This document shows, piece by piece, positions 15,936 to 47,431 of a stretch of 64,000 nucleotides of DNA. Source of the stretch: Torpedo marmorata (lineage: Eukaryota); contig OZ360248.1 of assembly GCA_977017645.1 (NCBI GenBank), positions 19,716,001-19,780,000 on the forward strand, in the 5' to 3' direction. Numbering within the stretch: position 1 is the stretch's first letter; each line of letters opens with the position of its first letter. The notes beneath the pieces are model-generated. The model saw only the letters and a program-made list of their open reading frames with translations. It was not told where the DNA came from and made no database searches. The position numbers and the translations under genes are program-made.

Positions 15936-18900
15936 AGATCGACTACATTCACTATTCTAATATTGGCAATGCTCATCAAGACAAGCCACATTTGCAGAAT
16001 GAGGGACAGCGTTCATGTTTCAGGAGCAGAACTGCTGAGTGCTTCCAACAGTTTCAGTTTTGATTTCAGATTTCCAACAGCTGCAGTGTTTTTTGATTTT
16101 CAATCAATATTCAAATGGCTTTAGTGTGTGTGAATGGCTCCCAGATTTGCAGTCACTGCACCAAGTGACGTTATGATGCTCAGAAAGGTTTCAGCAGCCA
16201 CCACCAACAGAACTACATAATATCTAAGCAGGGAATCCTGTTGCAATCCCTTCCCAAAGCGAAGGTAATAATGGTTTCTCCTTTCCATTTTTGCAAACCG
16301 ATCAAGACAATTAGCATTCATAACATAAAAATAAAGTGACTTTTATATTTGGTCTCTCTTGATCCTGTTTCTGTGCTGTTGTGCCTATTGTTATAAATTC
16401 AAACCAGCAACGACAGAAGACGCAACGCAAAAGGGTTAAAATTGAAATTTATATTTATTAAAGACAATCAAATAGATAATTTCTATTAACAATTAACCCC
16501 ACTATAAACGTCTATAACAACTATTCTTATCTAAAGTGTGTGTGTGTGTGCGTAAAGCCCAAACCATTACAGTCTGTGCCCAACCCTCAAGAAAAAAAAT
16601 AGAAAACTTTCCCCAAAACCCCCAGGTCAGTCATAAAAACAAGTCAGTCCCAAAAATACAGTCCACAAAAATCACTCTCTATGTTCAGGGTCCAAATTCA
16701 GCTCTGTGCGCTGGCACGAAGGACTTCTTAATGAACGTTGGAGAGAGAGACAATGACTGTTTAAGCTTACGAATGCTTGGTCTGCTTTCCTTCCGATGAC
16801 TTTCCCTTTTGGTAGGTGCACGAGGGTTGTTGTTCCAAATCAGTATACCACCGATGGAGGCGTGTACTTGGATCTCACAGCCAGTCTCGCTGATCTCACG
16901 CCTGTTCTCCATGAAAGTTGCTTTATATCAGGATTTTGCTGATACAAGAGGCCATGTGCTATTTTCCCCAGTCTTTCTTACTGGAATGCACAAGCCTGGT
17001 TTTGGTGTTGTTGCTTCAGCCTTTTGCAACTCCAAACTGAATGTTTTTTGCAGAGGTTTGCACCTGCTTTTGCAAAAGTGCAACAAAGTATATTTTCCAC
17101 AGCCTGTCTCTCTTTCTATGTGTCTCTCTCTCTGAGCACAGCCAGCCCTGGGCAACTTAACTCTTTCAGTACCTGGTCCCAGTGTGTACTCAAAAGACTT
17201 CATCCTTCCTGCTGACCGTCCGCAGTTCAAATGGTCAGTCATGGTCCATAACACCTCCCACCCACAAAGAAAATTTTGGTCTGCAAGAACAAAATTTTGG
17301 AAATTAATTGAGGTGTCACAATATAAACAAAACCAACAATGTTCATCCACAAACACAAAAATATGAACTATTTTCATTTATAAAGTTTAGCATCTAGAAA
17401 GACAATCAGCGATTACATTATCATTCCCTTTTATATGTGTTATCATTAAATCATATTCTTGCAAAATTAGACTCCAATTTAACAACCGTCGATTCTTATT
17501 TTTCATTTTACAAAGAAAAATCAATGGATTATGGTCAGTATACACTAGGAGTGGTTTTTGAGCTGTACAGGTATACACATCAAAGTGTTGTAGAGCCAAC
17601 ACAAGAGCTAACAATTCTTTTTCTATGGTTGAATAATTCCTTTGATGAGCATTGAACTCTTCGTTCTTCCTCTGTAACAGCACCGCACCCACAGCTTCAT
17701 CGCTTGCATCCACGGCTAAAGAAAACGGCTTTTCTAAATCAGGTGATTTAAGCACAGGTTGGTGGCATAAAATGGCTTTCAATTTGACAAATGCTTCCTG
17801 ACAACCTGTCGACCATAAAAAATGTTCTCCCTTTCTAAGCAAATTTGTGAGAGGGAGCACAAGATCTGCAAAGTTTTTACAGAACTTGCGGTTGTAGCCA
17901 ATCATTCCCAGGAATCTCTTCAGTTTTCTTACCAGTTGGAACAGGGAACTCGGAAATAGTCACAACCTTGGCCTCTACTGGTGCCAACTGCCCCTGTCCT
18001 ACTACATAACCCAGATAAATAACAGTCGCATGTCCAAACTCACTTTTACTTAAATTAACTGTGAGATTTGCTTTTGACAATCGTTTGAACAATTGTTTTA
18101 ACTCAAAGACACGCTCTTCCCAGGTGTTATTACTTACAATTAAATCATCAATGTAAGCACCTGTGTTCTTCAACCCTTGAATTACTGAATTAATCATTCT
18201 CTGAAATGTTCCTGGAGCATTCTTCATCCCAAAAGGCATAACATTATACTCATACAGCCCAAAAGGTGTTACGAATGCAGAAATCTCCCTAGCCCTTTTT
18301 GTCAAAGGAACGCACCAGTAAGTCAATTTTTGTAAGAAATTTGGCCTTCCCCACCTTGTCTATACAATCGTCTATTCTAAGAATAGGATAAGCACCTATC
18401 TTTGTCACAGCATTTACTTTCCTATAATCAATGCAAAATCTAACCGTTCCATCAGGCTTAGGCACTAAAACACAAGGGGAACTCCAATTGGAAGTAGACT
18501 TTCGAATGATACTGTTCTTTACCATGTAGTCAATTTCCTGATCTACCAGTTTGCACTTTTCCGCATTCTCTGTTGAGTGGCCTTTAAAGTCTCCTTTGCC
18601 ATCTCACAAGCTTTATGCAACCGATCCTTAAATTTGGAAACATAATCCAACAGATTTAAATGCACATCACTATTAATCCACTGTTCTTTTAATAACCTTA
18701 AAGGACCTCTCACCTCATGTCCGAAAACTAACTCGAATGGACTAAAACCAATTGATTCTTGGACAGACTCCCTCGCTGCAAATAACAACAAATGAACCCC
18801 TCACCCCAATCCTTTTCCTCCTCACAACAATAGGTTCTAATCATGTTTTTCAAAGTCGAATGGAACCTCTCCAAGGCCCCTTGACTTTCTGGATGGTACG

Positions 18901-20988
18901 CAGAGGATACAATCTGTTTAACTCCCAGTCTATCAACCACTTGTTGGAATACGCCTGACATGAAATTATTACCCTGATCTGATTGAATTTCCCTTGGCAA
19001 ACCTACCAAGGTGAAAAACGTTACCATAGCCTTTACAATGGACTTTGCTTTAATGTTTCTGAGAGGAATGGCCTCTGGAAATCTGGTGGCTGCACACATA
19101 ATTGTTAACAAATACTCATTCCCCACTTTGGTTTTGGGCAATGGGCCAACACAGTCCACAATCACTCTCGAGAAAGGCTCACTGAAAGCAGGGATAGGTT
19201 GCAAGGATGCCACCGGGGAAGCCTGATTAGGTTTACCCACCACCTGACAAGTGTGACAGGCCCGGCAAAAGCTTACAACCTCCCTTCTCAAACTGGGCAA
19301 ATAAAATTGCTTAATTATCTTCACCCCAAGGAGACCACCTAAGGGTGTGCTATGAGCCAAAGTTATTATTTCGTCCCTATATACTTTAGGGATCACAACC
19401 TGCTGCACTACTGCCCATTCTTCACTGGCAGGAACATCACATGATCTCCACTTTCTCATCAACACCCAATCTTTTTCATAATAACTCACTGGCACCTTCT
19501 AAATCTCCTTTTCAGAGAGAACCTTATCCCTCACCTCAGCAAGATCAGGATCCTCCTTTTGCCTTGCTATTAGCTCCTGTCGGGATAGTGACAAATCTGT
19601 GCCTTGAGGTGTCTTATCAGTGTATGGGTGTAACACAGGAGATTGCTCAACCTTTTCCAGGTGGTTTTGATTATCACTGACTTTTTCTTTCACCAATTTA
19701 TTTTCCACTGCCTTCTCTACAGTGACATTTTTCTTAGACATGGCCCTGGTTATGGCACATGCCGGATAAATATATCCGAGTCCTTCTCTGACTTATCAAT
19801 GACTGGCTTAGTGGTCATTTCGCACTGCAGGAACTACTTTACCCTCAGCCAAGTCATTGCCTAGCAACAGTGAGACTCCTTCTACTGGCAACTCTGATCT
19901 CACTCCTATTATAACTGGTCCTTCCACCAAGGCTGAGTTCAACACTATTTTGTGCAAAGGAATGGACTCAACATCATCCCAATTCCTTTAATTAAATTCA
20001 TTTCACCGGTGTCAGTGGCTTCACAAAATTCCAAGACACTATCTAACACAATTGACTGAGCAGCTCCAGTATCTCGCAAGATTTTCACTGGAACTTGTTT
20101 TGATCCTGCCTTAACTGAAACAAAACCATCAGTCACAAAAGGTTTAAATACATCCCTAACTTTGTCAGTAAATTTGTCTCCTTCCTGGGTGTTATGCCTC
20201 TTCTCACTCTGAATACAAGCATTAGGTGTTGCATCCTTTTCTCTCTTCTTTTTCAACACTGGACAGCTTGCTAGCATATGACCAGCCTTCCTACAGTAGT
20301 GGCAAATGGGAATCAAAGGGTTTTCCCTTTTCCACTTCCCTTCATCTCTTTCCTTAACACCACTTCCAAATTTACTTTCCACTTGCTTGGGATTATCCAC
20401 AGTGCCCTTTTGGAAAATTCTGCCTGACGTCCACTTAGGCTTGTGGGTTAAAGCATATTCATCTTTTAACTTAGCTGAATTTTGCCAAGTTTTCACCTCC
20501 TTTTCATCTCAGTATGCCTTAATATCCTCAGGAATGCACCTTTTTATCTCCTCAATTAGTATCAATTCTCTCAATTGATTGTAATCATTGTTTATAGCCT
20601 TAGATGCGCACCACCGGTCAAAACACACAACCTTTTCATAGGCAAACTCTGTGTTAAGATTGGGTTGCTGATCTTTTTAAATTTCTAAACTTCTGTCTAT
20701 AAGCCTCTGTAACTAACTCATAAGCCTGGAGTATAGCCTTTTTCACCGTTTCATAATCAGCAGCTTGCTCCGTGGTAAGAGTAGAATAAGCTTGCTGAGC
20801 TTTTCCTTTAATTATACTTTGTAACATAAGAGATCATTGGTCTTGTGGCCATTTTAATTTCACAGCCACCTTTTCAAAATGTTGGAAGTACTTATCTATT
20901 TCCACCTCCTCAAATGGAGGAACCAACCTAACTTCTCTTCTGGCCAAAATCCTCTCAACAGGACCACGAATTTGATCTTGGTGCTCTT

Positions 20989-21238
20989 TTTACAGCACCA
21001 ATAGCCTGAATACAACTGGGATTGTCTGATCTCAGAAGCTAAGCAGGCACAGGACTGGTCAGTACTTGGAGGGGAGACTGCCAAGGAACACCAGGTGCTG
21101 TAGGTTTCTGTGAGGGGCGCTGGTCAAAATAGCGACCCTTTGTCTGCCTTACGGTAGACAAAAATTAAAGAATTTCATGTATGTTACATTCTAAATGTAG
21201 TATTACGTGACAATAATGGAACCTTTACCTTTACCTTT
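20989..21238 (+). mobile_element. 5S rRNA-derived SINE (SINE3-like) inserted in the Gypsy gag
   Basis: 20989-21107 follows 5S rRNA (GTCTGATCTCAGAAGCTAAGCAGG...TGGTCAGTACTTGGAGGGGAGAC...GGAACACCAGGTGCTGTAGG), then a non-5S body and an (ACCTTT)n tail. Confidence 0.85.
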
Positions 21239-21768
21239 CTTGTCTCCTCTCATTTTCCAACTTAATCTTTTCCAGCTCATATTGGCTAATGTTCTCTCTC
21301 TAAGACTAACCTCTTTTGTTCTCTGTCTGCCTCCAAGTCTAATCTCTTTTGTTCCAATTCCCTGTCTAATGTCTTTTGTTCCAATCCCCTGTCTAATCTC
21401 TTTTGTTCCAATTCCAATTTCTTTAGTTCCAACTATATGTTCTCAGAAGGGTTACCCTTGGGAAACTGCTCTAACACGTTCTCCTCAAACTTTTTCCCTT
21501 TTATATAGTATTTGGCAATTTTTCTCCCAATCTCCGCCTTCTTCATTGATGGTTTTACAAAAGCAATGGCCAACTCTGTTGCTATAGCCACTAACTATTC
21601 CTTATTAGCCTTTTTCAAAGTATCAGGTTTGGGTGATTTCAAAAAAATTCCTACATCCATTGTTGCTGGTTTATGTTACACACACACTAGCTTTTAATTA
21701 GGTTTACAAAAGGAATGTCTTAAACCAGACTGGGATTCCTTCAATTACCAAGCTGGAGCTTGATTCAA

Positions 21769-21786
21769 TCCCGGACGAGCCCCCAA
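21769..21786 (-). promoter_or_regulatory. tRNA-Pro primer-binding site of the Gmr1-like element
   Basis: Minus strand TGGGGGCTCGTCCGGGA directly after the LTR end. Confidence 0.85.
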
Positions 21787-21891
21787 TTTGCTACAAATTC
21801 AAACCAGCAACGACAGAAGACGTAATGCAAAAGGGGTAAAATTGAAATTTATATTTATTAAAGACAATTAAATATATAATTTCTTAACAAT

Positions 21892-22544
21892 TTAAAAAAA
21901 TATATATTTTATTTAAAATTTTTAAATCACAAAATACATAAAATAGAATATAAAATTATCAAATTATTTGTGATACATTTTCACCCCCCCTCCCTCCCTT
22001 CCCTCCCCAACCCTCCCAACCCCACTAATCTAATAAAAAATAAAAATATAAAATAAAAATAGAAAAAGAAGAAGAAAAAGAAAGAAAAAGATAGAGTAAG
22101 GGGAATGCCAATCTATAAACTAATTCTATTATGGAGGTCAAGTATGCCAGTACATCCGATATCCAGAGATCTTCAAATCCTTAAACCAACAGCTTTCATA
22201 TATGGGCTCCAAATTTTTAAAAAGAAATGATATTTATTACGTAAATTATAAGTAATTTTTTCAAGTGGTATACACGAACGAAGTTCTGCATGCCATCTTT
22301 CTAATCCTAAATCTAAATCAGATTTCCAAGTAATAGCAATGCATTTCTTTGAAACAGCTAAAGCAATTCGTAAAAATTCTATTTGATACATATTTAATTT
22401 CATCTTAATACTAAATTTTCTAATATCTCCAAACAAAAATATCATAGGATCCATTGGAAATGTAATCTTAAATACTTTATCTAAGAAATTTTTAAATTTC
22501 AACCAAAAATCATAAACTTTTGGACAAAACCATGTAGAATGTAC
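21892..22544 (-). mobile_element. L1/Tx1-clade LINE 3' fragment inserted in the LTR
   Basis: ORF 22173-22502 (KKCIAITWKS...PLEKITY...F.KIWSPY); 14-bp target duplication AATTTCTTAACAAT at 21878-21891 and 22545-22558. Confidence 0.85.
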
Positions 22545-22599
22545 AATTTCTTAACAATCAACCCCACTATAAACGTCTATAATCACTATTCTTATCTAA

Positions 22600-22644
<45 letters not shown>

Positions 22645-22774
22645 AAAGCCCAGGCCATTACAGTCTGTGCCCAACCCTCAAGAAAAAAGTAGATGTTTTC
22701 ACTCCTGGGCGAGTCTCAAATGAAGGGACATAGCTACAAGAAAGGGAGCAGTCATTTAAAACTGAGGTGCATAT

Positions 22775-23638
22775 TGTTACAAACTCAAACCAGCAATGAC
22801 AGAAGACGCAATGCAAAAGGGTTAAAATTTTAATTTATATTTATTAAAGAAAATTCAATATATAACTTCTTAACGATTAACCCCACTATAAATGACTATA
22901 ACAACTACTCAGTTATCAAATACTTATCTAAAGAGTGTGTGAAAAGCCCAAACCATTACAGTCTGTGCCCAACCCTCATGTAAAAATGGAAAACCTTCCC
23001 AAAACCCCAGGTCAGTCATAAAAATAAGTCAGTCCCAAAAATACAGTCCACAAAAATCACTCTCTATATTAAGGGTCCAAATTCAGCTCCGTGCGCTGGC
23101 ACGAAGGACTTCTTAATGAAAGTTGGAGAGAGAGATAATGACTGTATAAGCTTACGAATGCTTGGTCTGCTTTCCTTCCGATGACTTTCCCTTTTGGTAG
23201 GTGCACGAGGGTTGCTGTTCCAAATCAGTATACCACCGATGGAGGCGAGTACTTGGATCTCACAGTCTGTCTCGCTGATCTCACGCCTGTTCTCCATGAA
23301 AGTTGCTTTATATCAGGATTTTGCTGATACAAGAGGCCATGTGCTATTTTCCCCAGTCTTTCTTACTGGAATGTACAAGCCTGGCTTTGGTGTTGTTGCT
23401 CTAGCCTTTTGCAATTCCAAACTGAATGCTTTTTGCAGAGGTTTGCACCTGCTTTTGCAAAAGTGCAACAAAGTATATTTTCCACAGCCTGTCTCTCTCT
23501 CTATGTGTCTCTCTCTCTGAGCACAGCCAGCCCTGGGCAACTTAACTCTTTCAGTACCCGGTCCCAGTGTGTACTCAAAAGACTTCATCCTTTCTGCTGA
23601 CCGTCTGCAGTCCAAATGGTCAGTCATGGTCCATAACA
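22775..23638 (-). mobile_element. Third, complete LTR of the Gmr1-like family
   Basis: Highly similar to 16389-17252 (parallel ORF translations); TGTTAC...ATAACA ends. Confidence 0.9.
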
Positions 23639-25150: not shown

Positions 25151-28100
25151 CTGTGGAAGACTCACTGATAAAGAATATGCATGCACAAATCCCTCTCAAG
25201 TAGAAAAAAAAGTAAATCACGAAAATCTGTAGACACCGTGGTTGAAGTAAAAACATAAAATGCTGGAGAAGCTCAGCAGGTCAAACAGTGTCCTTTATGT
25301 AGCAAAGGTAAAGATACATAACTGATGTTTCGGGCTTGAGCCCTTCATCAAAGTATGAGAAAATGCTGGCAGGTGTCTGAACAAAAGAGTTGGGGGGGGG
25401 TGGCAAACAATCCCAACCTCATCATCAAACCCACAGACAAGGGTGGTGCGGTTGTGGTCTGGCGCACTGACCTCTACCTTGCCGAGGCCAGTTGACAGCT
25501 CTCACACACTTCCTCCTAATGACCACTCCCACAGGACCCCACCACGGTACATCAGGCCACTGTCTCCAACACCATCTCCAACCTCATCACCTCTGGTCAC
25601 CTCCCCTCCATGGCCACCAACCTCATTCTCTCCCACCCCGCACTGCCCGTTTCTACCTTCTACCCAAGATACACAAACCCAACCATCCGGGCAGACCCAT
25701 TGTTTCTGCCTGCTCCTGCCCCACCGAACTAGTTTCATCTTACTTTGACTCTATCTTTTCTCCCCTGGCCCAATCCCTCCCCACCTCACATGCCCTCCAT
25801 CTCCTCAATGATTTCAGATTCCCCGAACCGGACCGCCTCATCTTCACAATGGACGTCCAATCCCTTTATACCTCTATCCCCCACACAGAAGGTCTCAAAG
25901 CACTTCGCTTCTTCCTGGACCAAAGACCCAACTAGTCACCCTCTACCACCACCCTCCTCCGCCTGTCAGAACTTGTCCTCACTCTAAATAACTTCTCCTT
26001 TAACTCATCCATTTCCTCCAAATCAAAGGAGTAGCCATGGGTACCCGCATGGGTCCCAGCTACGCCTGCCTGTTTGTGGGCTTTGTGGAGCAATCCATGC
26101 TGCAAGCCTACACAGGCAAGACCCCTCAACTCTTCCTCCAGTATATCGACGACTACATCAGGGCTGCCTCATGCACCCATGATGAGCTTGTCAACTTCAT
26201 CCACTTCGCGGCCAACTTCCACCCTGATCTTAAACTCACCTGGTCCACCTCCGATAACACTCTCCCCTTCCTGGATCTCTCTGTCTCCATCTCAGGAGAC
26301 AAGCTTTCCACCGACATTTACTACAACCCTCTAACTCCCACAACTACCTGGACTACACCTCCTCACACACTGTCCCCTGCAAGGATTCCATCCCCTTCTC
26401 TCAATTTCTCGGTCTCCGCCGCATCTGTTCCCAAAAGATGAGGTCTTCCAGTCCAGATCTTCTGAAATGTCTGCCTTCTTCCACAAACGTGGCTTCCCCT
26501 CCACCACTATCAACTCAGCCCTCACCCGCATCTCCTCCATTTCCCGCTCATCTACCCTGGCCCCCTCTGCCCCCAGACGCAACAAACATAGAATCCCCCT
26601 CATCCTCACCTACCACCCCACCAGCCCCCGCATCCAACACATTATCCGCCGGAATTTCCGGCACTTACTACAGGATCCCACCACCAGACAAATTTTTCCT
26701 TCTCCTCCACTCTCGGCCTTCCGCAGGGACTGCTCCCTCCGCGATTCCCTCATGCACTCATCCCTCCCCACCTATCGCACCCCCAGCACCTTCTCCTGTG
26801 CCCGCAGGAGGTGCAACACTTGCACCCACATCTCCCCCCTCACCACGGTCCGGGGCCCCAAACAGGCCTTCCAAGTGAAACTACACTTCACTTGTACATC
26901 CAGAGAACTTATTTACTGCATCCGGTGCTCCCTTTGTGGCTTTCTCTACATCGGAGAGACCGTTCATAGATTGGGAGATCGCTTCGCTGAGCACCTCCTC
27001 TCCTTCCGCAACAACAGCGACCTCCCAGTAGCCAACCATTTCAATTCCGGGTCACACTCCCACACTCACATGTCTGTCCATGGCCTTATGTACTATCCTA
27101 CCCAGACCACCTGCAAATTGGAGGAACAACACCTTATTTTCTGTCTGGGCACTCTCCAGCCAGATGGCATTAACATTGATTTTTCTGCTTGCCCCTAAAC
27201 CTGCTCGCCTTTATTTTCCCCTCCCCCCTTCCCTGTTGTGGTAAACCACTGTATATATGTTTGTACTCGTCTGGACACGCCCCTTGCTGACTGTGCCTGT
27301 GGCTCCTCCCACAGACCCCTGAATAAAGGCCACTGTGCCACAGCTTCCTCCCCAGTCCAGTCCAGACGACCAGCATGGACGTGCCTCCATTCTGATGTAA
27401 ATAAAAGCCTATCAGTTTCTACATAACTTCTAGTCTTTCGGAGTTATTGATGGTTCATCAATTTTGCTTACATCATTTTGATAATGGAGCAGATCCTGAA
27501 ACCAGAAAAGCTGGAACTCGACCCACAATCGCCTGAGGCATCCAACAGCTTCGAACACTGCCTGTGTTGTTTTGAAGCGTTCCTGCGGGCCTCCGCTGCT
27601 GTCGTTCAATCAGAGGACGAGAAACTGCAGGTACTACATTCCCGGGTCAGGCCCCGGGTATATTCGATGATCATGGACGCCAATTGTATCCGGAGGCCAT
27701 GAAAATACTGAGAAGCCAGTACCTGAAGAAGGTAAACGAGGTCTATGCTGGGCACCTCCTGGCTACTCGAAAACAGTGACCCGGGGAATCGAGCGCCGAG
27801 TACCTTTGAACTCTCGGATGGGCCTGTGGCTGCAAGGCCGTGACAGCCGCAGTGAACACGGAGGACCTGATCAGAGACGCCTATGTCGTGGGTATCAGAT
27901 CCAACTATATACGGCAGAGACTGTTGGAGCAGGGTGAGCTCGACTTACAGAGGGCAGTCGACCTAGCAGGCACGCTAGAAGTGGCCCTCCAAAATATGGA
28001 CGCTCACTCAGCCGACAACGCGGCCGCCTCGTGGTTACCACGGGTGCTGCCATCTTGGGATGCGGGAGGGCCGCAAGCCTGCGGAACACCACCACCGCCA

Positions 28101-28902
28101 CGTCGTGCCAGCGACCCGACCACGGTCGCTATACTCCGCGAGCAACCGAAGTGCTACTTCTGCGGCCTGGACAAGCATCCCAGAAAACGCTGCCCGGCGA
28201 AAGACGTGGTCTGCTCTAGCTGCGGAAAGAAAGGGCACTATACAAAGGTCTGCAAGTCCAAGCCGCCTTCTTGGACGCTGCCATCTTCCCAACCCAGCAG
28301 CGCTGCGTGGGGGCCGCCATCTTGGACGCCACCATCTTGGGACCGAACACCCCACCACTTCTACAGAGCCCGATAGCGACTCAATACTGGCCTCCATCAC
28401 GCTGGATCAAGGGATTCCTCATCAACTCGCCAGATCGATGATGGACATCGAGGTGGACAGCCACTCGACGAGCTGCCTGTTCAATAGTGGGAGCACGGAG
28501 AGCTTCATCCACTCCGACACGGTGCAGCATTACCGCCTCGCGGTAAGGCCGGAAAGCCACAAAGTCTCCATGGCCTCAAAGTCCCACATGGCAGATATTC
28601 GCGGCTACTGCGTAGTGACTCTGATTGTGCTGGGCACAGAGTACAAAGACTTTAAACTCCTCGTCATGTCACAGCTCTGCGCTGCCGTGCTACTGGGGCT
28701 GGACTTTCAATGCCATCTTAAAAGTGTGACGTTGGAGTACGATGGGCCCCATCCCCCTCCCCCTTACTGTCTGTAATCCGCAGTTTTTAAACTGCCCACC
28801 GCGCTTCACCCACAAAAACTCCCCGGCCTCCCCTCCCACCGCGTCCAGCCAGCAACCCGCAGATTGCCCACCGCGCATGACCTGCAGCCTTTCTACCCTG
28901 AG

Positions 28903-31900
28903 TATAAGTAACGGTGACTTCGCTCCACCAATAGTCACCTGGAGGCTAAGTGTGGTCCTTGCTTTTGACGCGTTTTATTTAATTTACTGACAAAGTCCAA
29001 TATGTTCAAAAACCTTTATTTTCACACATGACTTGCAGTAATCTTCAATGACTTTAATATAAACAGTTCTTGTAAACGATGTATAATGAGTTCCTTTAAA
29101 TTATTCCTTAAACAATTCCAAAACGATATGAAACACTGTAGATGATGTTAAAGTTATAGAAACATTATAAAACGGTATAAAACGGTCAATAAAGATGTGG
29201 AAACCAGACTCACCCCCCCTACATCTCTATCCTTTCTTTGTTCTCTCTCTCTAATGCTTCTGCGCATGCTCCAACGCGCATACTACAATTCCCAGCCTCC
29301 CACGCGCACTATGACGTCACTCTATACTGCGCATGCGCCCGTCGGCACTCCCGCGCATGCGCATATCAAAGAACGGGCCGACGACGGCCCACAGAACAAC
29401 GCAAGCGCTCCAAGGCCCGACGTGGCCTCGGAGCGCTCAGAGGACGGCCCAGTGAACAACGCGAGCGCTCAATGGCCCGACGTGGCCTAGGAGCGCTCCG
29501 AGGACGGCCCACCGAACTACGCGAGCGCTCCAAAGCCCGACGAGACATCGGAGCGCCGCAACAACGGTAAGTCAATGAGCCTACGGCTCTTACACCGGCC
29601 CCTAATTATTATAATTAGACGTAATGTCTTGAATAATAATTACACTATAAATAATAATAACCATAACATTAAAAACAATACAAATCTTCTTTCTTCCTTC
29701 TTCATAAATCTAGAGTTTACCATAACTCTGATTAAACAAAAGTCTGTAACCTGTGAAATGTACAACAACAAATAAAGTCAGTTTACATTTATCAAAGTTC
29801 CTCTGTCTCCAACAAAAGACAGACCTGGTTAATAGGTCTGTTTAGAAAACCAGTCTTAGTTTTAATTCGCACTTGACGCACAAGTCCTCTTTGTCTTGAA
29901 AAGTCTCAATAATCTTTTCCAAGTAACCAGGAATTTCTTGAAGTTGAATTATCCATAATAATAACAATGTCTCTTTAAAGTTCTTTTATCTTCAAATCTG
30001 AGTTAAAATGTCAATCAGTAAACCTCAAATCCTCCTCAGACAAAATAGATACAGGTTTTCTTTTGAATTTAACACAAGGCACTTCTTCAGCACGTCGTTT
30101 CACTTTATTCCTTTCTTCAGTATTCCACTTCTCATGTGAAGAATTTAAACTCTTAGAATTAGAATTTGAATATTTATCTGATTCTTTCGATTTTAAACAG
30201 GTCTGTTTAACCACTCTGGTTTCTATTGCTCTTTCCTGCAATTCTAAATCCAATTTCGCAACTTTCAATTCAGTCTCAGCTCCTTCCGAGAAATTAATAA
30301 TTTGATCTGAAGTCAAAATATCATGCGATACATTGATAGTTCCATTGTCAATCCTGTTGCGGCATACTTGAAATTTTTTAATTTCTTCGTCTTGCTTGTT
30401 ACATTTCTGCAATGCAATCTCACATTCTTTCTGCATTGTTAATTGTTGAACATTCAATTTACATTCTTGATTGGTTTTAAAAGTCAACTGTTTTGTGTTA
30501 TTAACCAATAACTTGATCTCTTTCAAAACATTAATCTCTTCCTCCAACCTTTTACATTTTGATAATGCTGAATCTCTTTCCTCAATAACTGTATTCATTT
30601 CTTCAGCAGTTATTCTTTTCTTCCGCTTTCTGACTTTGCGAGTTTTACTTACAATTAAATCTTTTTGTTTACTGTTTTCTTGATTATCTAATATTTCCAA
30701 TTCTCCTTTCAACATTTTGTTCTCTGAATTCAATTGCATTAAATTATCATTCACATTATTCATTATTCCATCAACACAATTTTCTGTGTTTTCCAGTTTT
30801 ACATCACATTGCAATAATTCTTCATTAGCTTTGTCTGTTGTAATCTCTGAACTACAAAATCTACATTCAGATTTGTTTTCAGTCACTTGTTTTATTCCTT
30901 TATTTGATTCAATTACACATGAATAATCAATAGTATTATTTGCAATATCTTCTAATACTTCACTTTCATCCATTTCTGACGAAATTAATTCCTTCAATGT
31001 TGTTTTAAATACCACTGATTTATTTTCACATTGATCTGTTTTCTTTTCTTCATAAGTGATTTTCTTATTCACGGTTTTTTGCTCTTCTTTTAACTCTTCA
31101 AATTTCTCAACTGAAATTTTATTAACATTTATCGCTACCTGTTCCTGAGCAATATCATTATTTCTTTCCATTGGTCCATTGATTGCCCAACCAAGTATGG
31201 TTCTAATAGCGTAAGGTCCATTCCTTTTACTTTCTATTACTTCTTTTGGTACCAAAACCTTTGGCACATCTGAACCAATCAGCATTTCTATCTCAGAATT
31301 AATTTCAGGTAAATAAACCTTCCACAGATAAGCTAAATGATGGATATCACTTTGATGAGGAATATTTCCTTCGTTCACAGGCATAGTCTTCTGAGTATAT
31401 ACACTTGGAAGATCACAAAATTTTTTGTCATCCAATCCAGCAACCTCTAAGCCTGAAACAATGTTAGTTTCAACAACCTTTTCTTGTCCCATGGTTTTTA
31501 ACATAATTCTTGATTTTCTTCCTTGAATATTAAGTTTATTCATTAGTCCTTCCGTGCAAAAAGATGCAGTGCTGCCTGGGTCTAGAAATGCATATGTTTT
31601 TACTATTGCATCCCCTTTCTTGGCTTTGACTTGTACAGGCACTATTGAAAGTTTGCAGTTATTCACCCCGGCCCCAGTAAGACCACTTGTCTGAACCGAG
31701 GTTATAACATTATTTTCTGTTGTTTCCTTTTCCAATTCTTTGTTTCTGTTTTGGATATGCAAAATTCTAGGATGTTTAAAATTGCATATGTCACAATTAA
31801 CTCGCTTCTCACAGTTTTTACTGATGTGCCCTTTACACAGACAGCTAAAACATATTCCATTTTCCTTTAAGAAAGCGATCCTTTCCTTATGTTCCTTCCT

Positions 31901-34900
31901 TTCCAATTGTAAACACATTTCCAAAGCATGTCCACCTTTACAGAACAAACAACTCTTTTCATTAGGCAAACTTTCCTTTTCCTTATTTACTTTGTCCTTT
32001 TCTTTATTTATAACTTGCACATTAGTAGCAAAAGTACTCCTTTTCACTTTCGGACTAGACTGTGAATTAGACTTCCTTACATCTTTGCTCATTGAATTAT
32101 CTCTGGTATTTCCATATAGTGGATCTGTTTCAACATACACTTGTCGTTCAAGAAAATTTACCAAATCCTTTAAGGTAATTCTTCGACCATAATTTACTTG
32201 TAAATCACAAGCCAAATTTCTCCATCTATCCCATACCTTGTAAGGTAATTTTTCTAAAATGATTCGCATATTACTATGCACATCAAGCTCACGAATACCA
32301 TCGATTTCTTCCATAGCATTACAACATCCTCTTAAAAACAAAGTATATTCTTGCAAAGCCTTTACATCATTTTGTTTTATTGATGTCCATTTAAGAGCTT
32401 TATCCATATAAGCTAAAGCAATTCGATGTTTGTTGCCAAAATATTGTTCCAATAAATCCTTAGCTTTATCTAATCCTCTTCCTGAAGACATTTGGTTACA
32501 ACTTTTTACCAATTCTTTTGGATGTCCCTTTGTGAACATTTCCAAATAATAAAGACATTCATCTCGATCTTGGCATTTATCTTCAATATTGCGTTTGAAA
32601 GATCTCAAAAATGATTGATATTGAAGTGGATCACCATCAAAAGTTTGTATCTCTTTCTTGGGTAAAGAAGAGAGAGACTGTAACTGAAACAATGATGCAG
32701 CAATTTCATTTTGTCTTTCCTTGGATTTCAATGCATTGCTCTGTTCACTGTCTCGTGTTGTATGCAATGTATCTGGAAACCTTACTGGTGTAGTTTCTTC
32801 CATATTTCTGATGCTTGGCTCATATAACAAAGAAGCTACTTCGTTCGACCGAACCCAATCCGCAGCCTTGCTTTCAGATGTTATTATTGGTACATGTGAC
32901 TCGATACCAATATGCTCTTGAAAGGTTTGCCCTTGTATATGTAAGTTTTGTATCCTTGGTTCTAAAATATCTATCCTTTTGGTTGGTTTCTTTTCCTGTG
33001 ACTCCTTTTTTGAATATGACCTTTTATTATCAGACAATTTAGATAATTTACTGCTAGCACCAGATATCATTGAGCCTTCTGTTGCTTTCTTTTTTGCCTT
33101 GGCAATAGCAATGTTTGCTTCCAACTCCTGCAGTTCTTTTCTCTGCCTTAGCTGCTCCTTCTCTTGTCTTAGCTGCACCTTTAGCTGTTGACTTAGCTGC
33201 TCCTCCTTTTGTCTTAGCTGCTCCTCCTCTTGTTCTAATATAAATTTATCCTTAAGCGTTTTTTGTTGTGCAAGAAGAGCGGCCAATCTAACATCAATCT
33301 TTGTACGTGACGATGCAGAACTTGAAGTACGAGAAACTCTGGAGCTCGAACCAGAACTTCTTTTGCTTCTCCTGCTTTCAGCATTTGAGACACTGTCACT
33401 TGCTTGTATTTCGTCCTGCAGTTCATATGTTGTCTTCATACTTACCTCTTTATCCAATTCGAATTGTATATTCTTTGCATCTTCAACCTCTTCAATTTCT
33501 TCAACATTTGGTGACACAATTTCAGCCATTTCCAAGTTATCTTCTTGTTCAACTAATGAAGCTGCCTCTTCATCCTTTGCCTGCTTCAATCTTTCGATAA
33601 GAACCTTTTTATTTCCACTTATGTCCTTTTTCAGTCGCTTCAATTCTTCTTTAATATCCACAACCTTCATGTCTTCAATACGTTGGTCCTCAACAGCAAC
33701 ATCAGCGGTTGCTGCGTCAGCTGCTGATAAATCAGTAGCTGCTGTATCAGTGGCTGCTGCGGCCATTTTACTCGTCTTGTTCCTCTTTCCTTCAAGCATA
33801 CACAACACTAGTCAAACAACAGTCCCCAATGGACCAGCGGCAGCAATTCCAATCTGTGTTCTTACTTGCTAAAGATACACAGAAGGAGTCCACAGACTTA
33901 TGCCTACCACTTCAAATGACTGTAATGTGCTGCAATCCACAAACGAGTTTCAACCACAACATACGTCACTAATATCACTGATTTTCCAAAAATGGTTTCT
34001 CCAACGTATTTATAGGACACTTTACTATAAGATTTGAAGCTTTAAATCACTCTCTGGCTGTTATTCATGGCAGATGGATGTAGATTACAAACTGCCCCCA
34101 ACTCGAGGCATCTCCAAAATGGCCACCAATTTATATCAGTCCAAAGCACAGAGAGTTTTTTCTATCTTCTTTCCTTCAAACTTCTGTTCCAAACAGCCAG
34201 CCCTTTATTGACTATAAGTAACGGTGACTTCGCTCCACCAATAGTCACCTGGAGGCTAAGTGTGGTCCTTGCTTTTGACGCGTTTTATTTAATTTACTGA
34301 CAAAGTCCAATATGTTCAAAAACCTTTATTTTCACACATGACTTGCAGTAATCTTCAATGACTTTAATATAAACAGTTCTTGTAAACGATGTATAATGAG
34401 TTCCTTTAAATTATTCCTTAAACAATTCCAAAACGATATGAAACACTGTAGATGATGTTAAAGTTATAGAAACATTATAAAACGGTATAAAACGGTCAAT
34501 AAAGATGTGGAAACCAGACTCACCCCCCCTACATCTCTATCCTTTCTTTGTTCTCTCTCTCTAATGCTTCTGCGCATGCTCCAACGCGCATACTACAATT
34601 CCCAGCCTCCCACGCGCACTATGACGTCACTCTATACTGCGCATGCGCCCGTCGGCACTCCCGCGCATGCGCATATCAAAGAACGGGCCGACGACGGCCC
34701 ACAGAACAACGCAAGCGCTCCAAGGCCCGACGTGGCCTCGGAGCGCTCAGAGGACGGCCCAGTGAACAACGCGAGCGCTCAATGGCCCGACGTGGCCTAG
34801 GAGCGCTCCGAGGACGGCCCACCGAACTACGCGAGCGCTCCAAAGCCCGACGAGACATCGGAGCGCCGCAACAACGGTAAGTCAATGAGCCTACGGCTCT

Positions 34901-34904
34901 TACA
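28903..34904 (-). mobile_element. BEL/Pao LTR retrotransposon, non-autonomous (no RT/RNaseH/integrase core), recently inserted
   Basis: 692-bp LTRs at 28903-29594 and 34213-34904 with no differences seen; CTGAG target duplication (28898-28902, 34905-34909); AATTAGGGGCCGG PPT; frameshifted BEL C-terminal remnant (RNSWLLG...RGLVRQVRIKTKTG.L.RPI..VCLLLE) at ~29795-29975. Confidence 0.92.
30011..33808 (-). CDS. Intact 1265-aa chimeric polyprotein: SAP domain, BEL Gag (DUF1759-like, three Zn knuckles), aspartic protease, MIPOL1-like coiled coil
   Basis: SAP-like IEDMKVVDIKEELKRLKKDISGNKKVLIERLKQA; LPKKEIQTFDGDPLQY..F; CLFCKGGH..EMC, CFSCLCKGHISKNC, CDICNFKHPRILH; TYAFLDPGS; C-terminal RITAEEMNTVIEERDSALSKCKRLEEE. 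Confidence 0.85.
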   Translation of the reverse strand: MLCMLEGKRNKTSKMAAAATDTAATDLSAADAATADVAVEDQRIEDMKVVDIKEELKRLKKDISGNKKVLIERLKQAKDEEAASLVEQEDNLEMAEIVSPNVEEIEEVEDAKNIQFELDKEVSMKTTYELQDEIQASDSVSNAESRRSKRSSGSSSRVSRTSSSASSRTKIDVRLAALLAQQKTLKDKFILEQEEEQLRQKEEQLSQQLKVQLRQEKEQLRQRKELQELEANIAIAKAKKKATEGSMISGASSKLSKLSDNKRSYSKKESQEKKPTKRIDILEPRIQNLHIQGQTFQEHIGIESHVPIITSESKAADWVRSNEVASLLYEPSIRNMEETTPVRFPDTLHTTRDSEQSNALKSKERQNEIAASLFQLQSLSSLPKKEIQTFDGDPLQYQSFLRSFKRNIEDKCQDRDECLYYLEMFTKGHPKELVKSCNQMSSGRGLDKAKDLLEQYFGNKHRIALAYMDKALKWTSIKQNDVKALQEYTLFLRGCCNAMEEIDGIRELDVHSNMRIILEKLPYKVWDRWRNLACDLQVNYGRRITLKDLVNFLERQVYVETDPLYGNTRDNSMSKDVRKSNSQSSPKVKRSTFATNVQVINKEKDKVNKEKESLPNEKSCLFCKGGHALEMCLQLERKEHKERIAFLKENGICFSCLCKGHISKNCEKRVNCDICNFKHPRILHIQNRNKELEKETTENNVITSVQTSGLTGAGVNNCKLSIVPVQVKAKKGDAIVKTYAFLDPGSTASFCTEGLMNKLNIQGRKSRIMLKTMGQEKVVETNIVSGLEVAGLDDKKFCDLPSVYTQKTMPVNEGNIPHQSDIHHLAYLWKVYLPEINSEIEMLIGSDVPKVLVPKEVIESKRNGPYAIRTILGWAINGPMERNNDIAQEQVAINVNKISVEKFEELKEEQKTVNKKITYEEKKTDQCENKSVVFKTTLKELISSEMDESEVLEDIANNTIDYSCVIESNKGIKQVTENKSECRFCSSEITTDKANEELLQCDVKLENTENCVDGIMNNVNDNLMQLNSENKMLKGELEILDNQENSKQKDLIVSKTRKVRKRKKRITAEEMNTVIEERDSALSKCKRLEEEINVLKEIKLLVNNTKQLTFKTNQECKLNVQQLTMQKECEIALQKCNKQDEEIKKFQVCRNRIDNGTINVSHDILTSDQIINFSEGAETELKVAKLDLELQERAIETRVVKQTCLKSKESDKYSNSNSKSLNSSHEKWNTEERNKVKRRAEEVPCVKFKRKPVSILSEEDLRFTD

Positions 34905-37239
34905 CTGAGGATCACCCCTCCACCGCTGTTCGCTAACCTTACCCCCGACTGTAAACCCGTTGCCACCAAAAGTAGGCGATACAGTGCCGGGGACAGGGCC
35001 TTTATCAGGTCGGAGGTGCAGCAGCTATTGAAGGAGGGGAACATTGAAGCCAGCACCAGCTCCTGGAGAGCCCAAGTTGTGGTGGTAAAGAATGGGGTGA
35101 AACACAGAATGGTCATTGACTACAGTCAGACCATCAATAGATATTCACAGCTGGACACGTACCCTCTCCCCCACATAGCCGACATGGTGAACTAAATCGC
35201 CCAATATCGGGTATTCTCCACCAGTGATTTAGAGTCGGCATACCACCAGCTCCCTATCCACCCGGAGGACCGCCAACACTCTGCCTTTGAGGCAGATGGC
35301 CACCTCTATCAGTTCGTGAGGGTTCCCTTTGGCGTCACCAATGGGGTCTCGGTCTTTCAGTGGGAGATGGACCGAATGGTAGACCAGTACAGGCTGCAGG
35401 CCACATTCCACATCACCATTTGCGGCCATGACCTACAGGATCATGAAGCCAATCTCCAAAAATTTCTCCAGACCGCCAAACTCCTCAACCTTACATATAA
35501 GGATAAATGCGTCTTTGGCACAACCCGCATTGCTATCCTCGGCTGCGTCATAGAGGACGGAGTCATTGGCCCCGATCCAGAACGCATGCGCCCCCTCCTG
35601 GAACTCCCCCTCCCCCACAGCCTCAAAGCTCTGAAAAGGTGCCTGGGCTTTTTCTCGTACTATGCCCAGTGGGTCCCCAATTATGCGGACAAGGCCCACC
35701 CCCTCGTCAAATCCACCTCTTTACCCCTGACGTCAGAGGCCTGTGCGGCCTTCAGCCGCATCAAGGCGGACATCGCCAAGGCCGCGATGTATGCTGTGGA
35801 CAAATCCACCCCGTTCCAGGTGGAGAGCGATGCATCCGACTTCGCCCTTGCCGCCACCCTCAACCAGGCGGGCAGACCCGTAGCTTTCTTTTCCTGCACC
35901 CTCCAAGGCCCCGAAATCAAACACTCCTCTGTCGAGAAGGAGGCCCAAGCCATTGTTGAGGCGGTATGGCACTGGAGACACTACCTCGCCGGCAAACGAT
36001 TCACCTTGCTGACTGACCAACGTTCAGTTCTTTTCATGTTCAACAACCAGCAGCGAGGTAAAATCAAAAATGACAAGATACTGAGGTGGAGAATCAAACT
36101 TTCCACCTACAATTATGATATTTTGTATCGGCCAGGAAAACTCAATGAGCCCCCAGATGCCCTATCCCGCGGAACATGTGCCAGCGCACAAAAAGAACGC
36201 TTACAAGCCCTCCACAGCGACCTCTGCCACCCCGGGGTCACCAGGTTCTTTCACTTCATCAAAGCCCACAACCTACCTTACTCCATCGAGGAGGTCAGGA
36301 CCATGTCCAGAAACTGCCAGATCTGTGCGGAGTGCAAACCGCACTTCTATCAACCAGACAGAGCGCACCTGATAAAGGCCACCCGTCCCTTTGAACGCCT
36401 GAGCATCGATTTCAAGGGACCCCTCCCCTCCTCTGACCGCAACGTGTACTTTCTCAACATCATTGATGAGTACTCACGTTTCCCGTTCGCTATCCCCTGC
36501 CCGGACATGACCACGGCCACAGTCATCAAGGCCCTGCACAATCTCTTCACTCTGTTCGGGTACCCCTGCTACATTCATAGCGACCGGGGGTCCTCTTTTA
36601 TGAGTGACGAGCTGCATCAGTACCTGCTGGCCAGAGGCATCGCCACGAGCAGGACCACCAGTTACAACCCCCGAGGGAACAGGCAGGTGGAAAGGGAGAA
36701 TGCTACAGTCTGGAAGGCCACCCTCCTAGCCCTAAGATCCAGAGGTCTTCCAGTCTCCCGCTGGCAAGATGTCCTCCCTGATGCGCTCCTCTCAATCAGA
36801 TCGCTCCTATGTACCGCCACCAATGCCACTCCACATGAGAGAATGTTTTCCTTCCCTAGGAAGTCCGCTTCAGGGACCACGCTTCCGTCCTGGCTTTCGG
36901 AGTTATTGATAGTGCATCACCTGTCCTTCCAGTTCTTATACCCACCCAGCCATCCCTCCTCCCCCTCATTGCTGCTGTCCCTTCCCTCCTTTCTCCACCT
37001 ATCATCTCCTGCCTTTGCCACCCCCCCTTCCACCCCTCCACTCTTTTGTTCGGACGCCTGCCAGCATTTTCTCATACTTTGATGAAGGGCTCAAGCCTGA
37101 AACGTGGGTTATGTATCTTTACCTTTGCTACATAAAGGACACTGTTTGACCTGCTGAGCTTCCCTGGCATTTTGTGTTTTTATTCCTCTCAAGAAGAGTT
37201 GGAAATTCACAGCACAAACTGATATTAAAATAATTCGGG

Positions 37240-37700
37240 CTCAGGATAAATTCTGGGCACCCTAGTTCAGAAAAGACGCCAAGGCCTTGGAGAGAGTATG
37301 GATTACTAGAATGATACCAATTATTTGGGACTTTAGTTATTTGGTGAGGCTGCAGTAACTACATTTGTTCTCTACAGAGGAGCAAAGGTCAAGGGGAAAT
37401 TTAAAACTGAGGGATTTTGAAAGAGTAAATAAGGGGAAACTGTTTTCACTGGCATGTAGCTTGGTAACCAGAGGACACAAATCAAAGATAATTGGCAAAA
37501 GAACCAAAGGGGAAACAAAGAAAAATATTTTTATGCAGCGAGCTTATTATGATCTGGAATGGGCTGAAATGGCAGTGGATGCAAATTCTGGAGGGAATTG
37601 GATGTACACATTGAAAAGGGAAAGAAGAAAGAACGGCAGGGCTACGAGGCACGAACAGGAAATGGTGAGACTGATTGGAGAGCTCTGTCAAAGATCTTTC
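37240..37700 (+). mobile_element. Old, diverged CR1 3' fragment
   Basis: FWAP...KD..ALER and TRGHK.KI.GKR-like remnants. Confidence 0.55.
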
Positions 37701-38669
37701 AGAGTGTCGATGTGCCGCATGACCTCTAGTAGTATCGTCCTCGAGTACGCTATCTGTCAGAATTTGAAAGACCACACCATCGGACTAGGAGCGTTCACCT
37801 GAAGGGAATGTCCTGATATGACATTGCTGCACACTGGCAGCCTGCCACAGAGGAACTGTGCAGAAAGGCCTGTGAAGTAGACATCAGACAGTCTGTGCAC
37901 TGCCCTGTGGACGTAACGGGGCACGAAATGAACAAAGAGATCGTTTTAGAAGAAGGTCAAAGCAGTGCGCAATAATACTTCTTATAGGAAGGACAAAGCT
38001 GCAATGCATTTAACATTTTCAACACAATCCACAAACATGCACAAAGGTTCATTGAACCGCTATTTGGTGTATAAATTACAGGTTCATCGGCATCACACCT
38101 TCTAATATGCACTAAAATTCATGCTGAGCAAACTGATTAATTACAAGTGGCAAGTGTTGGAAATATGAAAAAAAAGAGGAAATGTTGGGAATCCGCAATA
38201 CATAAAAAGATGAGAGTGAAAGAAGCCTGTTCATATTTCTCATTCTGGTGCCCAAATCCTATTTTCAAAGCGTTAACTTTGGGCTTGATGCAAATTAGGC
38301 ACTTGCTTGAAAATGAAAAGCTCTTTGTCCATGTTCATTGTGATGCTAAAAATCTCCGTTCGGATATTTGAAAGGAGAAATCAATGAAGGCTCGACGAGA
38401 CAGAGATCCACAATGCCGCAGACCCCGCCTCAGTAGCGAATGCCTCAAATGTAAAATTCCCACCCTGGCGTTCAAATGCTTACGTGGATTCATTGCTCGG
38501 TGACCTTCCAGCCCTATGCTTCCTTACTCCTCTGCACTTTGCCCTCTTGTTCATCCCCCCCCCCCCCCTCTCGGATAGACTCTACCCCTGGGGAGGCTCT
38601 GAGCTCTGAAATTCCATTCACCATATTCCACTTCTCTAGGAGGACCCTCTTTTAATATCCTCTTTGACC

Positions 38670-45481: not shown

Positions 45482-47431
45482 CAGCTATTCCCTGACATAC
45501 GTCCGAGTTCCGTTCTGACCGACCAGTCGTATCTCGAAATAGACGTAAGTCGGAAATATGTTAGCATGACATGTAGTCCCCACGCTATTGGTCCCCACAC
45601 TGATCTCACTACCCCGCACTCTCCCGTCAGCCCACTATCAGTCCCCACACAGATCCCACTGCCCCGCGCTCTCCCGACAGCCCGCTATCAGTCCCCACAC
45701 TGATCCCACTGCCCCGCGCTCTCCCGACAGCCCGCTATCAGTCCCCACACTGATCCCACTACCCCGCGCTCTCCCGACAGCCTATCAGTCCCCACAGTGA
45801 TCCCATTGCCCCGCGCTCTCCCGACAGCCCGCTATCAGTCTCCACACTGATCCCACTGCCCCGCGCTCTCCCGACAGCCCGCTATCAGTCCCCACACTGA
45901 TCCCACTGCTCCGCGCTCTCCCGACAGCCTGCTCTCAGTCCCCACGCTGATCCCACTACCCCGCGCTCTCCCGACAGCCCGCTATCAGTCCCCACACTGA
46001 TCCCACTGCCCCGCGCTCTCCCGACAGCCCGCTCTCAGTCCCCACACTGATCCCACTGCCCCGCGCTCTCCCGACAGCCCGCTCTCAGTCCCCACTCTGA
46101 TCCCACTGCTCCGCGCTCTCCCGACAGCCCGCTCTCAGTCCCCACACTGATCACACTGCCCCGCGCTCTCCCGACAGCCTGCTCTCAGTCCCCACACTGA
46201 TCCCACTACCCCGCGCTCTCCCGACAGCCCGCTCTCAGTTCCCACACTGATCCCACTGCCCCGCGCTCTCCCGACAGCCCGCTATCAGTCCCCACACTGA
46301 TCCCACTACCCCGCGCTCTCCCGACAGCCCGCTCTCAGTCCCCACACTGATCCCACTACCCCGCGCTCTCCCGACAGCCCGCTCTCAGTCCCCACACTGA
46401 TCCCACTGCCCCGCGCTCTCCCGACAGCCCGCTCTCAGTCCCCACACTGATCCCACTGCCCCGCGCTCTCCCGACAGCCCGCTCTCAGTCCCCACACTGA
46501 TCCCACTGCCCCGCGCTCTCCCGACAGCCCGCTCTCAGTCCCCACACTGATCCCACTGCCCCGCGCTCTCCCGACAGCCTGCTATCAGTCCCCACACCGA
46601 TCCCACTGCCCCGCGCTCTCCCGACAGCCCGCTCTCAGTCCCCACACTGATCCCACTGCCCCGTGCTCTCCCGACAGCCCGCTCTCAGTCCCCACACTGA
46701 TCCCACTGCCCCGCGCTCTCCCGACAGCCCGCTCTCAGTCCCCACACTGATCCCACTGCCCCGCGCTCTCCCGACAGCCCGCTCTCAGTCCCCACACTGA
46801 TCCCACTGCCCCGCGCTCTCCCGACAGCCTGCTATCAGTCCCCACACCGATCCCACTGCCCCGCGCTCTCCCGACAGCCCGCTCTCAGTCCCCACACTGA
46901 TCCCACTGCCCCGCGCTCTCCCGACAGCCTGCTATCAGTCCCCACACCGATCCCACTGCCCCGCGCTCTCCCGACAGCCCGCTCTCAGTCCCCACACTGA
47001 TCCCACTGCCCCGTGCTCTCCCGACAGCCCGCTCTCAGTCCCCACACCGATCCCACTGCCCCGCGCTCTCCCGACAGCCCGCTCTCAGTCCCCACACTGA
47101 TCCCACTGCCCCGCGCTCTCCCGACAGCCCGCTATCAGTCCCCACACTGATCCCACTGCCCCGCACTCTCCTGACAGCCCGCTGTACCTGTACAGCATTC
47201 TTTAATCCTGAGAACTGAGAGAGATGCGATGATGTACACAATGCCGGGATATCGTCTGATGGTCACTATCATATGCACGCAGCCGTTAGCACTGGTGGAC
47301 GTACGATCAAGAGTGATTTTTATATTTACATATATTTTTTCTTTATTTTTTAAAATTTATACAGTATTTTTTTTTCGGTCGTATGTACGGATGGTCGTAA
47401 GTCGCATAGGTTGTAAGTCGGGGAGAGGCTG
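45482..47431. mobile_element. Tigger/pogo-like MITE holding a 50-bp minisatellite
   Basis: TA|CAGCTATTCCCTGACATACG...GTAAGTCGGGGAGAGGCTG|TA imperfect TIRs; subterminal CGTAAGTCG motifs. Confidence 0.7.
45580..47181. repeat. 50-bp minisatellite, about 32 copies
   Basis: Unit CAGTCCCCACACTGATCCCACTGCCCCGCGCTCTCCCGACAGCCCGCT(C/A)T. Confidence 0.97.

Follow-up and report, generated by a model that had tools for sequence, protein, structure and literature searches.

A BEL/Pao LTR element in the genome of Torpedo marmorata carries spliced fragments of three host genes, BRCA1, MIPOL1 and ELOA (Elongin A), fused in frame to its Gag-protease, and within the MIPOL1 fragment the end of one exon is joined exactly to the start of an exon that lies upstream of it in the host gene. 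Our account as a whole, which we consider probable, is that the element is mobilised in trans, that its MIPOL1 piece likely derives from a circular RNA and that the insert is likely stop-free filler. The element occupies 28903–34904 (6,002 nt, minus strand) of the 64,000-nt stretch of contig OZ360248.1 that we analysed, hereafter the window, where it interrupts a decayed Gypsy-type element of the plus strand. Both of its LTRs measure 692 nt and are 100% identical, and the whole is flanked by a 5-bp TSD, CTGAG. Its features, in window coordinates, are as follows.

34905..34909: TSD CTGAG, 5′ side
34213..34904, minus strand: 5′ LTR, 692 nt, starting with TG and ending with TA, identical to the 3′ LTR
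30011..33766, minus strand: single 1,251-aa ORF, Gag-protease fused in frame with the three-gene host insert
33578..33679, minus strand: SAP domain, aa 30–63 (Pfam PF02037, E 1.8e-8)
32219..32641, minus strand: BEL/Pao gag core DUF1759, aa 376–516 (PF03564, E 1.9e-5, slightly short of the curated cut-off)
31750..31951, minus strand: Cys/His zinc-knuckle cluster of Gag, from the translation, limits approximate
31084..31670, minus strand: aspartic protease region to the pol exit switch point, limits approximate, motif at 31588
30663..31083, minus strand: captured BRCA1 fragment, spliced, trimmed relative to the four host exons of older copies
30357..30662, minus strand: captured MIPOL1 exons f (3′ part), g and h, without introns
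30356..30357, minus strand: back-splice-type joint, end of exon h to start of upstream exon b
30203..30356, minus strand: captured MIPOL1 exons b and c, less 81 nt deleted in frame at 30285/30284
29991..30212, minus strand: captured Elongin A (ELOA) fragment, with the ORF stop (30013–30011) inside it
29795..29973, minus strand: integrase C-terminal remnant (DUF5641), outside the ORF, from the translation and a DNA match to the autonomous 3′ end
29595..29603, minus strand: polypurine-tract-like stretch ahead of the 3′ LTR
28903..29594, minus strand: 3′ LTR, 692 nt
28898..28902: TSD CTGAG, 3′ side

The BEL-type gag (DUF1759 and the Cys/His cluster) and the aspartic protease share a single ORF, in which the protease region gives a weak Asp_protease_2 match (E 0.11) and is colinear with the ORF of autonomous relatives to aa 896. 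The initial annotation had described an intact long frame between identical LTRs that stays open for ~350 aa after the protease; both the frame and the LTRs are as described, and the post-protease tail of 355 aa returned no RT, RNase H or integrase family match in a Pfam search. The autonomous PR-RT-RH-IN gene set, absent from the window element, is present in a sister element (L094), and where the autonomous partner has ~3.2 kb of pol the window element has ~1.1 kb of host RNA, all pieces lying in sense and in frame with gag-protease. The LTR ends are TG..TA, not CA; one older copy has TG..CA ends with a 5-bp TSD. The SAP domain is N-terminal in the Gag of both autonomous and non-autonomous forms. 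Elsewhere in the window are another decayed Gypsy-type element (16613–23297, minus strand, LTR-like repeats 96% identical) and a GC-rich tandem array (45485–47281, ~30 units of 50 bp, 94–96% identical); positions 27,000–38,000 contain no tRNA genes.

The peptide that had been singled out as MIPOL1-like corresponds to 30619–30365 on the minus strand, within the 33766–30011 ORF. All four protein matches of the tail (3,416 candidates, 208–664 aa) were MIPOL1, the best being that of Narcine bancroftii (E 8.9e-31), followed by Pristis (3.3e-26), Latimeria (2.2e-13) and a newt (5.5e-5). A chance match between coiled coils is ruled out, since the MIPOL1 match was kept under SEG masking and composition statistics (pairwise E 1.7e-29) and the exons match at the DNA level; the similarity thus exceeds generic coiled-coil likeness, as had been claimed. 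A search of proteins clustered at 50% added 33 unnamed proteins, of which one matches the BRCA1 part and the other 32 the MIPOL1 part.

In this 6.2-Gb genome the host MIPOL1 gene (G000:C40) spans ~370 kb, with exons that we name a–j, canonical splice sites and ~86–96% protein identity to the electric ray Narcine. The element matches the consecutive exons f, g and h end to end at 79–86% DNA identity with the introns absent, so that the f-g-h junctions are spanned and the proposal that an intronless host RNA replaced pol holds. A second, out-of-order MIPOL1 piece (30356–30203) consists of exons b and c, whose place in the host gene is ~190 kb upstream; the order in the element is therefore f-g-h and then b-c, to which older copies add 18 nt of exon d. 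The in-frame MIPOL1 capture of the initial annotation is thus real, but that description was incomplete: BRCA1 and Elongin A were captured as well, and the MIPOL1 segment is not colinear with its gene. A shared one-residue gap had hinted at a donor from the Narcine lineage. We rejected this because older copies show the outgroup state at 3/3 host-derived and 3/3 Narcine-derived MIPOL1 substitutions, and the gap removes a different residue. Four insert-bearing copies (L024, L031, L039 and L040) lie in introns of host MIPOL1 (G000:C40, 64.33–64.50 Mb); two of them, oppositely oriented, flank exons e and f at a distance of a few kb, a layout that could favour back-splicing.

The flanks of the MIPOL1 segment had been considered as decayed pol or as further MIPOL1. 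Against pol, the local score of the 5′ flank fell inside the range of shuffled sequences and that of the 3′ flank was slightly over it (37 versus a maximum of 34 in 30 shuffles); against MIPOL1 cDNA, both flanks scored inside that range. Both readings were dropped, and the flanks are assigned instead to BRCA1 and ELOA. The 5′ part of the tail gave one match among 6,691 candidates to Narcine BRCA1 (E 1.7e-34), and in the window copy the captured BRCA1 is 78–84% identical to the exons of the host gene on G000:C61. Host ELOA is on G000:C41, and the ELOA piece of the window copy is 76–88% identical to its exons. A second locus with an Elongin A domain (G000:C25:175318134-175337048, L198), 73–77% identical to the captured exon, is likely a paralogue and not the donor. 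The Narcine BRCA1 model (P0006, aa 1–190) starts with a Gypsy-like gag in place of the RING, for which no family match was found there; this start is likely a mis-annotation.

The genome search with the Narcine BRCA1 protein also returned an older family, ~72–80% identical to the window element, in which the architecture of the capture is more complete. Its copies run through gag, protease, the start of RT, BRCA1, MIPOL1, Elongin A, a stop, an integrase remnant and an LTR. The BRCA1 piece holds four spliced exons, the MIPOL1 piece exons f, g, h, b and c plus the 18 nt of d, and the Elongin A piece four or five spliced exons; these match host exons end to end at 89–100% identity, and within individual older copies all pieces share one frame across the joints. 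Elongin A is recognised there by Pfam (PF06881, E 1.4e-13) and by a structure match (PDB 8oev_M, E 5e-43). Older copies (for example L144:3022-3363) still have the first half of that Pfam domain together with the stretch ahead of it, which we take to be the BC-box region; both are gone in middle-aged and young copies.

The window insert (~1.1 kb) maps entirely onto the older insert (~1.9 kb), ~40% of which was deleted between the two forms. Six of the eight gaps relative to L163 are multiples of three, and the other two (257 and 110) are one base off, in a comparison with a copy that is itself frameshifted. No long stretch other than the MIPOL1 f-g-h core is free of large deletions. At the switch points, there is a 2-nt exact overlap at BRCA1/MIPOL1 and a loose and possibly fortuitous similarity at ELOA/integrase, and ~11 nt and 19–25 nt at two joints are unassigned. 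The latter stretch, between MIPOL1 and ELOA (L155, ~5695–5721), is common to older copies and matches neither host gene; it is possibly the trace of a fourth captured RNA. Among the 24 older loci there was neither a precursor with one or two captures nor a longer capture, and uncaptured ELOA gave one match in 150 scored (1,627 candidates). Third-position net distances (BRCA1 0.061, ELOA 0.029, MIPOL1 0.011, with overlapping neighbouring intervals) give no more than a hint about the order of capture.

Could the inverted order of the MIPOL1 exons record a circular RNA? A 235-nt ungapped block (30519–30285) spans the end of exon h and runs into the start of exon b, which is entered at the proximal of the two sites of a tandem acceptor, TAG CAG. 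Eight distinct variants of the joint region, from 25 copies, match exons h and b at 19–25 of 30 bases; the same region agrees with exon a, exon i, introns or the distal acceptor at just 6–14 of 30, and neither exon a nor exon i matches at the joint. MIPOL1 is held by 23 of the 24 older loci and the joint is spanned in 20 of them, 12 being identical over 20 nt to the host donor plus acceptor and the remaining eight differing at one or two sites. The joint is also crossed without a gap in 30/30 middle-aged and 21/21 young copies. Furthermore, the only MIPOL1 sequence in the insert is that of exons b, c, the start of d, f, g and h, all within b–h. A b–h circle would be 777 or 780 nt long, which is a multiple of three and stop-free, and such a circle, if it exists, could be translated round and round. 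We consider it quite likely that the MIPOL1 piece originated from a circular RNA.

The same joint could have formed from a jump of the reverse transcriptase between linear mRNAs, from trans-splicing or exon repetition, or from a b–h tandem duplication since lost, and we regard these together as unlikely. Identical letters would result from linear mRNAs joined 1 nt beyond the h donor and 2 nt ahead of the usual b acceptor; the AG at the exon end in both linear junctions would provide a small homology for the jump, and template switching was frequent, judging by the other joints of the insert. On the other hand, such an origin requires both breakpoints to fall no more than 1–2 nt from splice sites, about 1 in 1,000 by a rough count, whereas the six other switch ends all lie more than 10 nt from any splice site (18 nt for the nearest). 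A present-day tandem duplication was not found: every exon occurs once in 400 kb, and the uncaptured parts are single-locus (exon d, one match of two candidates; the C-terminal exons, two matches among 51 candidates, both on C40). A MIPOL1 circle is moreover reported in mouse, in a passage that does not give its exons (PMC9888537). The joint is present in contigs of two other runs (X1 and X2), always with element-type letters, so that no circle is directly observed and a host-type circle joint was not seen in the assembled contigs of either; no run is on record as RNA. Contigs of X1 cover host exons without an intron, which fits RNA and equally a repeat-only assembly, and the insert sequence was found in runs carrying three organism labels.

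The initial annotation had left room for the segment being confined to this copy, but it is multicopy. A genome search with the MIPOL1 segment returned 31,979 and 38,306 candidates, which are first-look figures and not copy numbers; 150/150 scored matches (of the 31,979) were 100% identical, 115 of them in frames of at least 1,200 aa by hand count. In 660 kb around the host genes there are seven insert-bearing copies, five with the full insert, versus two pol-bearing ones, a density that extrapolates roughly to 47,000–66,000 insert-bearing copies. If the 32,000–38,000 candidates are near-full copies, the family makes up ~3–4% of the genome. We sampled three age layers: identity to the host MIPOL1 exons falls from ~95% in old through 85% in middle-aged to 80% in young copies, and the identity of LTR pairs is 100% in the window element, 97% in L031 and 88–93% in five of 14 older loci with both LTRs.

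A search for Peptidase_A17 gave 6,618 candidates, of which 150 were scored and 20 loci fetched, chosen mainly for long frames. Eleven of these 20 hold one ORF of 2,018–2,134 aa with RT, Peptidase_A17, integrase and DUF5641, lack the insert, and are 90–98% identical to the window element in the LTR, gag, protease and 3′ end. Over the shared parts the sister element L094, with a SAP domain (E 6.5e-9) and DUF5641, is 95–96% identical to the window element. Copying in trans by this intact sister family is likely, and with identical LTRs and an intact partner the family looks recently mobile, in agreement with the initial view of it as still mobile. In a protease tree of 54 rows (L151 and L174, with short matches, were left out), 18 autonomous copies form the sister group of the young non-autonomous clade (100/98), and the autonomous clade is nested among middle-aged non-autonomous copies, the autonomous label needing three changes. 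The synonymous distance from old to young copies is 0.41–0.50 in gag-protease and 0.20 in the insert, a roughly twofold difference. Because this nesting and the doubled distance both fit it, an exchange of gag-protease between co-packaged RNAs of the two families is a consistent reading, which the thin sampling of older autonomous copies (three loci) weakens.

Selection acts on the open frame of the insert, while its residues drift. Across 309 captured codons in the 18 old and 20 young copies in which the three pieces are all present, the net dN/dS from old to young was 1.05 (0.72–1.55) at a transition bias of 3; the same bias gives 0.39–0.56 for gag-protease and 0.22–0.27 for the autonomous RT. 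The MIPOL1 segment alone gives ~1.0 at a bias of 3 and 0.67 at none, the interval spanning 1. With no transition bias assumed, the pooled insert value is 0.69 (0.49–1.00), which leaves room for weak residue constraint. Observed transitions exceed transversions ~3- to 4-fold per class. When 137 or 196 random substitutions were placed on the host codons in neutral simulations, 0/1,500 results were stop-free in each case, with 7.5–10 stops expected on average, and the indels common to the young set are of 18, 21 or 24 nt. We conclude that selection acts on the frame and not on the residues, because a dN/dS of ~1.05 stands beside this absence of stop-free simulations; the copy sets come from similarity searches, which biases within-group distances and makes the selection figures approximate. 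The initial annotation had the segment kept under selection, which is right for the open frame and not supported for the MIPOL1 residues. Frameshifted copies were considered as parents of new ones and rejected: none of the six frameshift-sharing pairs has a rare allele in common, and the shared frameshifts of middle-aged copies therefore look recurrent, not inherited.

Why, then, is the frame kept? The fused tail might work as a protein module that displays a MIPOL1 coiled coil or a BRCA1/ELOA surface on Gag and is retained for its binding. The native frame of all three pieces, the strong conservation of that frame, the escape of the f-g-h core from large deletion and the dN/dS of 0.67–0.69 under no transition bias would favour it. 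However, at the observed transition bias of ~3–4 the insert dN/dS is 1.03–1.22, in contrast to the low value of RT from the same genome, and both the loss of the ELOA Pfam domain of older copies and the deletion of so much of the insert stand against a retained module, which makes this reading improbable. Captured host fragments have also been viewed as camouflage in the plant gene-capture literature: silencing small RNAs would also strike BRCA1, MIPOL1 and ELOA, which would restrain the host. The donors do include conserved genes, and insert-bearing copies outnumber pol-bearing ones around the host genes, but young copies differ from the host exons by ~20% and show no tendency to remain similar, and camouflage leaves the kept frame unexplained; we consider it very improbable.

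Retention of the insert as stop-free filler, rather than for its protein content, is the likely explanation. A reason at the RNA level is the simplest, because Gag and protease would survive a stop in the tail. The frame might be kept so that ribosomes run to within 0.2–0.4 kb of the 3′ LTR, whereby the RNA would escape nonsense-mediated decay; the chances of this hypothesis seem to us evenly balanced, and it is the least certain step of the proposal. The distance from the stop to the 3′ LTR is 416 nt in the window element, 199 nt in the partner and ~0.33 kb in older copies, and retroviral RNAs with long 3′ UTRs are described as predicted targets of this decay (PMC2925335).

We infer that within a particle the reverse transcriptase moved between several templates, namely the element RNA, two mRNAs and a MIPOL1 circle. 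The circular template would have been the 780-nt b–h circle, entered in exon f and left 18 nt into exon d, so that the enzyme would have read through the back-splice joint between entry and exit. Co-packaging with the partner would supply RT and integrase and permit the exchange of gag-protease. The insert itself has been trimmed in frame from ~1.9 kb to 1.1 kb. The conjunction of all steps (a circle copied through its back-splice joint and fixed with two mRNAs in the Gag-protease frame, with selection for translation to the 3′ LTR and the insert as filler against decay) is put forward tentatively, as somewhat less than an even prospect.

Several known systems resemble parts of this. The maize LTR element Bs1 has transduced three host-gene segments into a chimeric reading frame; it is a plant element, its chimeric gene is reported to be transcribed and translated, and the passages that describe it mention neither a circular-RNA joint nor a large expansion (PMC13317346). 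By contrast, the ray family is BEL/Pao and from a vertebrate, its candidates number in the tens of thousands and its captured residues drift neutrally. The LTR-mediated retrocopies of Tan et al. 2016 are likewise partial, intron-less, sense host mRNAs in LTR elements, with multi-gene chimeras, frequent in-frame fusion, one BEL case (BEL18_AG) and further rounds of retroposition. Their switch points show short similarity, to which the 2-nt overlap at BRCA1/MIPOL1 may correspond; they are young and few-copy, and the word 'circular' is absent from the main text (PMC5131818). As in such retrocopies, the ray insert is intron-less partial host mRNA inside discontinuous LTR-element sequence and has no poly(A); unlike them, it has three age layers, a frame still open at ~20% divergence and a back-splice-type joint. 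The mouse circRFWD2 pseudogenes share the reversed exon–exon junction at splice sites, many copies from one circle and an enrichment of LTR sequence in their flanks, with 33 high-confidence copies called pseudogenes (Dong et al. 2016, PMC4897178). The ray junction is non-colinear in the same way, exactly at a donor and an upstream acceptor, but the circle-derived piece sits inside a complete LTR element with a TSD, in frame with Gag-protease and between two other captured mRNAs. The event also resembles retroviral transduction, as had been suggested. In acutely transforming retroviruses such as E26 (gag-myb-ets), gag-fused pieces from more than a single host gene replace replication genes, a helper is needed and the captured genes are selected for protein function; the ray element differs in having no env, in germline inheritance and in the drift of its captured residues.

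Host-gene fragments in transposable element proteins have been surveyed (PMC3597677), and both multi-gene LTR capture and circRNA copies beside LTR sequence are already known. Neither this family nor a back-splice joint in the ORF of a large active family is described in the mainly open-access literature that we searched; the supplements of Tan 2016 and Dong 2016 could contain similar cases. The mechanism of circRNA retrotransposition is left open in the text of Dong et al. 2016 (PMC4897178), and the ray family shows a back-splice-type joint in a complete LTR element for which donors, switch points, helper and age layers are readable in one genome. It also separates a long-kept open frame from a functional protein, two things often conflated in work on gene capture. 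The natural copies, some with stops and some free of them, number in the thousands, and RNA sequencing by itself suffices to test why the frame is kept open. In these rays, the copies can mislead the mapping, annotation and circRNA calling of BRCA1, MIPOL1 and ELOA. If the proposal is true, its rule would account for the coding, sense and in-frame character of RNAs captured in such elements, which are nevertheless not functional genes, and the capture would belong to a family that came to rank among the most abundant mobile ones in a vertebrate genome.
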